Source: an uncultured Anaerolineae bacterium (GTDB lineage: Bacteria > Chloroflexota > Anaerolineae > VGOG01). From it: a stretch of DNA of 31,902 nucleotides. The notes below the pieces were generated by a model that did no database searches, had not been told where the DNA came from, and worked only from the letters and a program-made list of their open reading frames with translations. The stretch covers positions 1,166 to 33,067 of the forward strand of contig CAYNWI010000001.1 in NCBI GenBank assembly GCA_964400825.1. Reading direction: 5' to 3'. Numbering within the stretch: the stretch's first letter is position 1; every line of letters begins with the position of its first letter. Shown in pieces: positions 28,372-29,937 of the stretch. The position numbers and the translations under genes were made by a program.

Positions 28372-29937
28372 TCAACCGAAGTGCGTTGCACCTGCGAGTT
28401 CTGTGGGAAGCATGTCCAGGCCGATGGTTTCACGGCCTTCTTGCCAACGCAGCTTGATCTCGATGGCGTGTTCCTTCAGGGTGCGACGGCTCAGGGTGAG
28501 GCGTACGGGGATGCCGATGAGATCAGCATCGTTGAACTTGACCCCCGCGCTCTCATTGCGGTCATCGTAGAGGACTTCGTAGCCCAGGGCTTCTAAACTG
28601 GCGTAGACCTCCTCCGCTTTGGACACCGTCTCCTCACCAGCCCCCAGAACGACCAGGTGGATGTGGTAGGGGGTGATGGCGGACGGCCAGATGATACCTT
28701 TGGGGTCGTGATGCTGCTCGACCACGGCGGCCATCAACCGCGCCAGGTCTAGCCCGTAGGAGCCCACGACGATGGGCCTGGGTCTGCCATCTCGATCGAG
28801 GTAGGTGGCCCCAGCACTCTCGCCACGCTTCAGGTAGCCGATCTCGATGCCCGGTGTTTCTGTCAGTTGACTGCGGCAGCGGGGGCAGGCATAGCCGGCC
28901 TGGGCCTGGGCGATGTCTGTCAGGATGTCGGCCCGGAAGTCGCGGGGATAGTTGACGTTCAGCAGGTGGTAGCCGTCCTCGTTGGCCCCGGCCACGAAGT
29001 TGGAGCCCAGCAGCACCGAATCGTCGGCCACCACTTTCGCCCCCCTCACCCCGATGGGGGAGGCGTAGCCGGGCACGGCTCCAATATTCAAAATCTCTCT
29101 TTCTGTGGCAAGGTACAAGTCGGCGATTCCTAGAGCGTTTTTCAACTTGGTCTCACTGATGCCCAGGTCGCCACGGATGATGGCGAAGATCACTTCACCC
29201 TCTGCGGTGGCATAGAGCAGGGCCTTCAAGGTTTTTACGGTGGGCACTCCGACGTAGTCAGCCAGGGCCGCGATGGTTTTGCAGTCTGGCGTCGCCACTT
29301 TCTCGATTGCTTTTTCCGTCTCCTGGGGCGCGGCCGGCCTGGCGAACGCGGCCCACTCGGCGTGGGCGGCATAGTCGCACTCGGGGCACAAGATAAAAGT
29401 GGACTTGCCTGCCTCACCAGCGACGATGAACTCGTGGCCGTCCTCGGTCTCTACGGCCACGGTCTCCAGGTGGCAGGCCTGGAAGATGCTTACGTAGGCC
29501 TGGTAGACGCGCCGGTAGAAGTCGTTCAGGCTCGTTGAGTCGGCGTGAAAACTGAGGGCCTCCGTCGCCATGAACTCTCGGGCCTCCAGCAGGCCCCCTC
29601 GGGAGCGGTACTCGTCGCGGAATTTGGCATGGATTTGGTAGATCAGGGTGGGCAGTTGGCGGTAGGATTCGATCTCCGTGCGGCACAGGTCGGCCACCAT
29701 CTCCTCGGCGGTCAGGGTGAGGGGCATCAGCAACTCCTGCCCTCCGAGGGTCTCTATTTCCCGGCGTGCGATCTGCTCGATCTGGTGTAGAACTCGTCGT
29801 CCTAGCGTCAGGTAGGTGTACGTGCCCTCCGCCGAGGGGCGGATCATGCCCGCCCTGAGAAGCAATTGATGGCTGGCGGTTCGGGCCTCGGAGGGCGCCT
29901 GGCGCAAGGTGTGACCGAAGAGTTTTGACATACGCAT
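28372..29937 (-). CDS. proS: Proline--tRNA ligase paralogue with a degenerate catalytic domain, intact INS editing domain and anticodon-binding domain
   Basis: MRMSKLF...SHQLLLRAGMI, KFRDE, INS domain TPDCKTI...KTLKAL...GYASP, YDDRNESAGVKFNDADLIGIP; AGGAG RBS fits ATG 29937. Confidence 0.85.
   Translation of the reverse strand: MRMSKLFGHTLRQAPSEARTASHQLLLRAGMIRPSAEGTYTYLTLGRRVLHQIEQIARREIETLGGQELLMPLTLTAEEMVADLCRTEIESYRQLPTLIYQIHAKFRDEYRSRGGLLEAREFMATEALSFHADSTSLNDFYRRVYQAYVSIFQACHLETVAVETEDGHEFIVAGEAGKSTFILCPECDYAAHAEWAAFARPAAPQETEKAIEKVATPDCKTIAALADYVGVPTVKTLKALLYATAEGEVIFAIIRGDLGISETKLKNALGIADLYLATEREILNIGAVPGYASPIGVRGAKVVADDSVLLGSNFVAGANEDGYHLLNVNYPRDFRADILTDIAQAQAGYACPRCRSQLTETPGIEIGYLKRGESAGATYLDRDGRPRPIVVGSYGLDLARLMAAVVEQHHDPKGIIWPSAITPYHIHLVVLGAGEETVSKAEEVYASLEALGYEVLYDDRNESAGVKFNDADLIGIPVRLTLSRRTLKEHAIEIKLRWQEGRETIGLDMLPTELAGATHFG

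Follow-up and report, generated by a model that had tools for sequence, protein, structure and literature searches.

A ProRS-like gene upstream of nusA

We analysed a stretch of 31,902 nucleotides (hereafter, the window) from an uncultured Anaerolineae bacterium of the phylum Chloroflexota (GTDB lineage VGOG01; assembly GCA_964400825.1, contig CAYNWI010000001.1, positions 1,166 to 33,067), focusing on one gene of its reverse strand. The gene encodes a protein of 521 aa (the window protein) related to prolyl-tRNA synthetase (ProRS, encoded by proS) of the P-type, the architecture marked by an insertion (INS) editing domain that the E-type lacks (PMC11229370). An earlier note, made from the letters of the window, had described this protein as a pseudo-synthetase with an eroded aminoacylation site and intact editing and anticodon-binding domains, and our alignments and Pfam searches confirmed that description (Table 1). 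The domain order of bacterial ProRS (catalytic, INS, catalytic, anticodon-binding) and its overall fold were both recognised, by Pfam and Foldseek, respectively. INS and the anticodon-binding domain matched tRNA_edit and HGTP_anticodon, and the match to the catalytic domain (tRNA-synt_2b) was weak and split (47.5 bits). Against the ProRS equivalog NF006625, the window protein scored 503.6, under the cut-off of 558, compared with 736–749 for intact relatives.

The mechanical open reading frame (ORF), at 28372..29943 on the minus strand, encodes 523 aa and is two codons longer at its 5' end than the gene delimited here. Judging from the starts of homologues (MRMS) and the spacing to a ribosome-binding site (RBS), the start is the ATG at 29937 (MRMSKLF). 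A promoter and an RBS had been regarded as retained; matches to both are present, to be read as consensus matches only, and three sites of such promoter quality were observed in the region against 0.7 expected.

The gene lies directly upstream of nusA-infB-rbfA-truB-ribF, in the window as well as in relatives. The usual place of proS in bacteria is this proS-nusA-infB position. The ancestral position therefore points to the original bacterial proS, functionally displaced by another ProRS type, rather than to a recent duplicate. The earlier proposal of a maintained paralogue is accordingly qualified, as the gene is maintained but is not a recent duplicate.

An AlphaFold2 model based on 50 homologues reached a pLDDT of 86.5, with low confidence at the N-terminus, at the deletion junction (mean pLDDT of 61 for aa 71-80) and in the motif-2 loop (<50). 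The best structures retrieved with it by Foldseek were the bacterial ProRSs 5znj, 2j3l and 8w8j (TM 0.82–0.87). In this model, the bacterial ProRS fold is kept despite the deletions; the structural comparison suggested in the earlier note thus gave a confident model that superposes on bacterial ProRS.

Lesions in the aminoacylation site

The lesions were called against the solved ProRSs of Staphylococcus aureus and Enterococcus faecalis and against intact Anaerolineae ProRSs, rather than against the Escherichia coli enzyme. Residues 1-80 of the window protein align to chain residues 1-78 of the solved ProRSs, and the alignment picks up again at chain residue 106. At the junction, MPLTLTAEEM (nt 29698-29727), motif 1 is followed by TAEE in place of P/M-THEE, a substitution already described and seen again in the alignments, and TxE is left only as T-A-E. 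The deletion at this point is also real, with its size, previously given as about 36 aa, amounting to about 33–35 aa by alignment.

Motif 2 of class II synthetases is defined as fRxE ... (R/H)xxxF ... (D/E). The window protein has FRDE...EAREF...E: LLEAREF carries Glu for the second Arg, Asp is replaced by Glu and Tyr by Leu, and MKDAYS of intact ProRS reads ATEALS. The second Arg position holds Glu or Asp in every member of the short-form clade described below. The proline-binding loop, for which a role in substrate binding has been described (PMC11223479), is 7 aa shorter, reading ETEDG-HEF against EADSGIMGGSVSHEF in the intact form; a deletion before HEF had been proposed, but with a length of 10 aa that the alignment does not support. 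Further downstream, GHLFKLGTKYS has become GYLKRGE, and motif 3 reads GSYGLDLAR, compared with GSYGIGxGR or GCYGIGVSR in intact ProRS. Both changes had been pointed out from the sequence and were borne out by comparison with intact relatives.

Taken by the class II signatures, motif 2 and motif 3 (GxGxGxxR) are both deficient. Three core segments also depart from intact ProRS, namely the stretch between motifs 1 and 2, the proline-binding loop and the GHxFxLGTKYS strand. Every lesion is in frame, in agreement with the earlier note.

Preservation of the editing and anticodon-binding domains

The INS domain is well preserved. Its match to tRNA_edit (PF04073) scored 79 bits against a cut-off of 25.5 and covered profile positions 1-116 of 123. 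The landmarks are the editing lysine K238 within TLK (nt 29224-29226), RGD at 255-257, the GXXXP loop (GYASP, G290-P294) and GANEDGYH with H324. These residues are invariant in both alignments examined (A1 and A2), so that the lysine and the loop on which the earlier note relied are present, together with the histidine. From the alignment to the E. faecalis and S. aureus enzymes, we take K238 to be equivalent to E. coli K279 and H324 to E. coli H369. The editing lysine, strictly conserved in the INS superfamily, is named in the title of a 2014 paper by Bartholow. In the anticodon-binding domain, many alignment columns are invariant in A1 and A2, as is the proline of motif 1.

Two cysteine pairs, CPEC and CPRC, flank INS in degenerate as well as intact Anaerolineae ProRSs and are invariant or nearly so. 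They look like a putative four-cysteine zinc knuckle at the hinge of INS.

Table 1. Coordinates, within the window, of the ProRS-like gene, its domains and motifs and its upstream signals
Feature	Residues (aa)	Position	Strand	Evidence and remarks
P-type ProRS-like gene, whole	1-521	28372..29937	-	ORF and Pfam; catalytic remnant, INS, catalytic remnant, anticodon-binding domain
N-terminal remnant of class II catalytic domain	1-172	29422..29937	-	Alignments; dN/dS 0.27
Motif 1 GGQELLMP, fused straight to LTLTAEEM		29698..29745	-	Pro72 invariant; helix and beta-hairpin gone (~33-35 aa)
Motif 2 remnant KFRDEYRSRGGLLEAREFMATEALSF		29548..29625	-	fRxE Arg kept; Arg of (R/H)xxxF is Glu
Junction of the 7-aa proline-binding-loop deletion (ETEDG/HEF)		29428..29451	-	Alignment
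INS editing domain	173-362	28852..29421	-	Pfam tRNA_edit 4e-22; dN/dS 0.18, lowest of any domain
First Cys pair CPEC, INS entry	184-187	29377..29388	-	(Nearly) invariant in A1 and A2
Second Cys pair CPRC, INS exit	351-354	28876..28887	-	(Nearly) invariant in A1 and A2
GHxFxLGTKYS strand remnant (GIEIGYLKRGESAG)		28795..28851	-	5 aa shorter than intact form
Motif 3 remnant GSYGLDLAR		28738..28764	-	GxGxG pattern broken, terminal Arg kept
Class IIa anticodon-binding domain, including DDRNESAGVKFNDADLIGIP	417-512	28402..28689	-	Pfam HGTP_anticodon 1.8e-14; dN/dS 0.25
Stop codon		28372-28374	-
Shine-Dalgarno-like AGGAGAG		29944..29950	-	6 nt 5' of ATG 29937; consensus match only
Sigma-70-like promoter match TTGGCG-18-TATAAT		29971..30000	-	10/12 positions; consensus match only

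Conservation of the short form and selection

A short form with the same lesions was found in about 43 clusters at 90% identity, 67–100% identical and 515–560 aa long, with intact ORFs, all from metagenome-assembled genomes (MAGs) of Anaerolineae, Anaerolineales or Chloroflexota. It is present in four GTDB species representatives (VGOG01, CAZQDO01, CAZEBW01 and DAOUDK01) and on seven more metagenome contigs, of which one matches the window at 99% identity. At the DNA level, the same lesions occur at 12 independent loci. Their recurrence across these clusters and loci shows that they are not an assembly artefact, and the deletions, as anticipated, are conserved in the clade and not unique to this assembly.

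Selection was assessed on ten independent short-form coding sequences by the Nei-Gojobori method (NG86), with nusA and infB from the same loci as a comparison. The dN/dS ratio was 0.23 for the whole gene, compared with 0.16 for nusA and 0.135 for infB. Per domain, it ran from the value of INS up to 0.31 in the C-terminal catalytic remnant, with the N-terminal remnant and the anticodon-binding domain in between (Table 1). Purifying selection therefore acts on the whole protein; the constraint on INS is close to that on a housekeeping gene, and the greatest relaxation is seen in the former catalytic parts. These values bear out the view that the gene is maintained.

A wider family of degenerate ProRSs

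With the window protein as the query, we searched 1.84 billion representatives of clusters at 50% identity and analysed the best 150. At least three lesions in the aminoacylation signatures were present in 86 of them. The lesions affected GHxF and the motif-3 glycines (84 representatives each), TxE (72), the fRxE Arg (56), the second Arg (54) and the motif-3 Arg (29), in addition to the large deletion (54) and the loop deletion (35). The INS Lys and His are present in all 86 degenerate representatives, in 84 of them together with the Asn. Among the intact representatives (n=56), the INS Lys was found in 55, the His in 48 and all three residues in 43. Some related lineages are without even the arginines that remain in the window protein, with INS still kept.

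The conservation pattern of the degenerate representatives is inverted with respect to that of the intact ones. Mean pairwise identity was 0.30–0.31 in the catalytic parts, 0.41 in INS and 0.46 in the anticodon-binding domain for degenerate representatives, against 0.49–0.52, 0.33 and 0.40, respectively, for intact ones, figures of which only the relative pattern is meaningful, as the intact set probably covers more phyla. The most eroded members of the family score under both ProRS equivalog cut-offs. When a profile built from 55 degenerate representatives was used as the query, the best 120 matches were all intact ProRSs of 567–611 aa, and the few named sources among them were all Anaerolineae, Anaerolineales or Chloroflexota. 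These matches place the origin of the family among Anaerolineae/Chloroflexota ProRSs, although they name no degenerate member.

E-type ProRSs in related genomes

A separate ProRS of the archaeal/Thermus type (E-type) was found in related genomes. On contig L089 (GCA_029933115.1), a 477-aa E-type ProRS with a ProRS-C_1 domain is encoded directly upstream of, and on the same strand as, a 562-aa P-type protein (P0050) that has no proline-binding loop and carries Gln at the second motif-2 Arg. The E-type protein scored 585 bits against TIGR00408 (cut-off 437), and we take its active-site motifs and C-terminal Tyr to be intact, by comparison with Thermus ProRS. E-type genes also adjoin intact P-type genes on four other contigs (L046, L088, L109 and L112), on the same strand every time, and two more pairs are implied by contigs of the same size (P0055 with P0142, 8478 bp; P0056 with P0145, 6268 bp). 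The recurrent adjacency makes the E-type and P-type proS genes a conserved pair, which may be organised as an operon. Among the best 120 E-type matches listed, identity to the L089 E-type protein was 73–92%, and all named sources were Anaerolineae or Chloroflexota.

Within the genus of L089, the E-type copies are 89–92% identical to each other. The P-type proteins of the same genus range from intact (P0051, P0052 and P0056, with a mutual identity of about 90%) to loop-deleted (P0048 and P0050) and further decayed (P0054 and P0055, about 80%). In P0048, the fRxE Arg is also replaced by Cys. The decayed forms have the same 7-aa loop deletion, and their fRxE Arg is changed to Cys or Gly. This range of P-type states beside highly similar E-type copies indicates that the decay is recent, recurrent and independent in the L089 genus, as would be expected were charging left to the E-type enzyme. 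The tetranucleotide composition of L089 correlates with that of the short-form clade at r=0.967, compared with 0.94–0.95 when 7-kb pieces of the window are set against its remainder. Given this near-equal composition, L089 and the short-form clade are probably close relatives.

The second, intact ProRS that the earlier note suggested looking for exists in the lineage, as the E-type gene beside P-type copies, but not in the immediate surroundings of the short form. No second ProRS was found in the window by phmmer searches of all its ORFs with intact P-type and E-type seed queries, and none within 10 kb of the short-form genes at the 12 loci, also by phmmer. Judging from the relatives, the window genome would nevertheless encode an E-type ProRS, and the short form is unlikely to be its sole proS.

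Several candidate partners were traced, none of them to the short-form MAGs. The E-type proteins P0154, P0192, P0250, P0246 and P0212 are encoded in other assemblies (GCA_029935795.1, GCA_035395345.1, GCA_964653285.1, GCA_014874485.1 and ERZ27256778). Comparison of the NCBI accession neighbourhoods of E-type candidates with those of the short forms MGA9350560 and MBC8262609 gave no match. P0250 shares a JGI sample series (Ga03074xx, Ga03155xx) with two window-like contigs, L101 and L104, but its tetranucleotide correlation with the short-form clade was only 0.87 and it was rejected because same-genome 7-kb pieces reach 0.94–0.95. The top intact match, P0051, is not a same-genome paralogue, since it belongs to a different genus (GCA_030589485.1); its contig carries another adjoining pair of E-type and P-type genes. 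Separately, P0286 (in the cluster of P0199) is a 367-aa E-type ProRS with the annotation 'partial', encoded on a 3.07-Mb contig from an Anaerolineales MAG. As the genome seems to be closed, either the gene is truncated or the assembly contains a frameshift.

Proposed function and alternative explanations

We consider it reasonably probable, on the sequence evidence, that the gene is the ancestral P-type proS of this Anaerolineae lineage, which would have lost tRNA charging and been retained as a tRNAPro-specific proofreading protein. Its product would most likely be a synthetase-derived, tRNAPro-specific Ala-tRNAPro deacylase, by analogy with the archaeal ThrRS-ed. We infer the loss of aminoacylation, the deacylase activity, its substrate and the E-type partner in this genome from sequence. 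In the parts that sequence can check, that is, lesion conservation, selection, the NF006625 score and the E-type ProRS found in the lineage, the pseudo-synthetase reading of the earlier note found support.

Some Ala-tRNAPro is produced by ProRS enzymes. INS hydrolyses it and owes its choice of tRNA to the recognition of G35/G36 by the anticodon-binding domain, whereas mutating the acceptor stem makes no difference to INS catalysis (PMC11295145). A full-length ProRS can rebind released mischarged tRNA and hydrolyse it (PMC4787780), and ThrRS-ed, a threonyl-tRNA synthetase (ThrRS) without a catalytic site, provides trans-editing to a ThrRS that has no editing domain (PMC9976931; PMC7373986). Taken together with the absence of INS from the E-type and with the domain anatomy described above, this literature leads us to propose that the window protein most likely deacylates Ala-tRNAPro released by an E-type ProRS. 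In the proposed mechanism, proline would be charged by the separate E-type ProRS, as seen in the relatives and presumed here. The window protein, probably still dimeric through motif 1, would grip tRNAPro by its G35/G36 anticodon. The mischarged 3' end would then be handed to the intact INS, where Ala-tRNAPro would be hydrolysed in trans. What is left of the catalytic domain would act as a docking and dimerisation scaffold that links INS to the anticodon-binding domain and to the dimer interface. As to whether this extends to a large, old and repeatedly arising Anaerolineae family of full-length, ProRS-derived, anticodon-guided Ala-tRNAPro trans-editors that would serve editing-less E-type ProRSs, we see the case as evenly balanced.

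Several observations weigh against a loss of charging and would fit a still-working ProRS with a reduced core, either as the sole ProRS or as a second isozyme like that of Bacillus thuringiensis, which keeps two active ProRSs (PMC11229370). The score of 406.3 against TIGR00409, the profile named in the earlier note, passes the cut-off of 306.7, while the NF006625 score falls under its own. The fRxE Arg of motif 2 and the terminal Arg of motif 3, which contact ATP, are kept in all members of the window clade, so that some nucleotide binding may be possible; the TxE Glu and the Pro of motif 1 are kept as well. No E-type ProRS was placed in the short-form MAGs (VGOG01, CAZQDO01, CAZEBW01, DAOUDK01 and GCA_964625745.1) by candidate-by-candidate tracing, which, with the loci searched within 10 kb, leaves these MAGs with no second ProRS found. 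However, the protein has lost two core strands, the proline-binding loop and the GHxFxLG strand, and all members have an acidic residue for the Arg of (R/H)xxxF. Related lineages drop the remaining arginines while keeping INS, the catalytic parts are the least conserved, opposite to intact enzymes, and the shortfall against NF006625 points the same way. We, thus, regard a working synthetase as improbable. A further point against the favoured function is that the anticodon-binding domain and the catalytic remnant have a higher dN/dS than the neighbouring housekeeping genes, which indicates some relaxed constraint, with the caveat that NG86 may underestimate dS in these GC-rich genes. This excess would also fit a decaying pseudogene that has not yet acquired a stop codon, as would the progressive lesions across lineages and the recent independent decay in the sister genus (P0048, P0050, P0054 and P0055). 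Such a pseudogene is very improbable, given undisrupted ORFs in the roughly 43 clusters, which diverge to 67% identity, at the 12 loci and in 86 highly divergent representatives, dN/dS values of 0.18–0.31, far below 1 in every domain, deletions that are all in frame, promoter-like and RBS-like signals and a confident AlphaFold2 model.

The remaining alternative accepts that the gene is maintained and that the protein binds tRNAPro, and assigns it a role other than Ala editing: a charging sensor or regulator, a tRNA chaperone or sequestering factor, or a deacylase with INS retargeted to another amino acid (Ser, Abu or Cys). Pseudo-synthetases with regulatory roles do exist, HisZ being an example. 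The conservation of the catalytic remnant and of the two ATP-contacting arginines, which a pure deacylase may not need, would also be accounted for, and the amino acid specificities of the INS superfamily are diverse and relaxed (PMC11295145). Nonetheless, the INS residues that serve to hydrolyse Ala-tRNAPro do not vary across the 86 degenerate representatives, where they are commoner than in intact enzymes. INS is the most constrained domain of the protein, and the pairing with an editing-less E-type ProRS provides a direct need for Ala-tRNAPro editing. For these reasons, we judge a non-editing role rather unlikely and favour the Ala-tRNAPro deacylase.

Other genes in the window

The rest of the window contains ordinary housekeeping genes, including those for isoleucyl-tRNA synthetase (IleRS), lspA, rluD, purB and RtcB, and no tRNA genes were found in it. 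IleRS (1097 aa, 3655-6948, plus strand) combines tRNA-synt_1, Anticodon_1 and DUF5915. This is presumably the eukaryote-like IleRS2 architecture, which may make it another synthetase of non-bacterial type here. At 14630-18314 (plus strand), a radical-SAM gene similar to lysine-2,3-aminomutase precedes two ATP-grasp genes similar to D-Ala-D-Ala ligase; the three may form a small cluster for beta-amino-acid ligation. At 11222-11782 (plus strand), a strong match to plasmid pRiA4b ORF-3-like proteins (PF07929, 4.7e-75) overlaps the mechanical start of the adenylosuccinate-lyase ORF. The RtcB RNA ligase (18651-20102, minus strand) lies near the proS-nusA-infB block and is accompanied by archease in relatives (L084 and L085). 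NusA (26327-28297, minus strand) has a long C-terminal tail rich in Glu, Lys and Arg with a run of eight Glu, and its mechanical ORF starts well upstream of the probable start.

Relation to known systems and significance

By mechanism, the nearest known system is ThrRS-ed, which occurs in Crenarchaeota beside ThrRS-cat and is likewise a synthetase homologue without a catalytic site that keeps the editing and anticodon-binding domains (PMC9976931; PMC7373986; PMC11295145). At the sequence level, the window protein has this same architecture, with no functional catalytic site and both other domains kept. The two differ in that ThrRS-ed is archaeal, belongs to another synthetase family and edits through a DTD-like fold rather than INS. 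Moreover, the window protein still has a folded catalytic remnant, and its proposed partner is a ProRS of the other structural type and not the other half of a split gene.

By chemistry, the nearest system is ProXp-ala, which shares the predicted reaction, the editing fold and the catalytic Lys and occurs where ProRS has no functional INS (PMC11295145; PMC3973320). ProXp-ala is, however, a single domain that reads N72/N73 of the acceptor stem, in contrast with the 521 aa of the window protein, its catalytic remnant and its anticodon-binding domain. Because the anticodon-binding domain is kept, anticodon-based recognition, as in cis-acting INS, would be expected. According to a 2024 review, all members of the INS superfamily other than the INS of ProRS are single-domain proteins (PMC11295145), and the multi-domain architecture of the window protein is, therefore, not among the described INS families.

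By descent, the window protein is closest to P-type ProRS, of which it fails the motif tests for a working enzyme. It shares domain order, fold, 36–38% identity and a TM of 0.82–0.87 with the E. faecalis (2j3l) and S. aureus (5znj) enzymes, and the place upstream of nusA-infB and the INS and anticodon-binding signatures with canonical P-type ProRS. It differs from the latter by having no hairpin/TxE segment, proline-binding loop or GHxFxLG, by its degenerate motifs 2 and 3 and by its score below the NF006625 cut-off. The coexistence of both architectures in one bacterium has a precedent in B. thuringiensis, with ProRS1 (P-type) and ProRS2 (E-type) (PMC11229370), as on L046, L088, L089, L109 and L112; both B. 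thuringiensis enzymes are reported to be active synthetases, unlike the window P-type protein, which is without aminoacylation signatures. In the Anabaena ThrRS pair T1/T2, apo-T1 is a full-length class II subunit that performs no synthesis and edits for an editing-poor paralogue (PMC4787780). There, the loss is conditional, upon loss of zinc, and reversible, and takes place in heterodimers of similar ThrRSs, whereas here it would be genetic and permanent. A heterodimer of the window protein with the structurally different E-type ProRS is unlikely.

A full-text literature search found no published description of an aminoacylation-dead full-length ProRS. In NCBI, the short forms P0023 and P0031 (MGA9350560.1 and MBC8262609.1) are named 'proline--tRNA ligase', a name given by the pipelines because TIGR00409 still passes, even though NF006625 fails. 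Such naming can mislead inventories of aminoacyl-tRNA synthetases, estimates of MAG completeness and redundancy, and proS-based phylogenies.

If the proposed function is correct, the family would represent a natural dissection of a class II synthetase, in which the synthetic site was lost many times and the editing site was kept, together with the anticodon-binding domain and the scaffold between the two. It would offer a ready system for studying how the anticodon-binding domain delivers the 3' end of the tRNA to INS, bypassing the synthetic site. It would also constitute a bacterial parallel to ThrRS-ed, and evidence that the gain of an editing-less E-type ProRS creates selection to keep the proofreading of the old enzyme.

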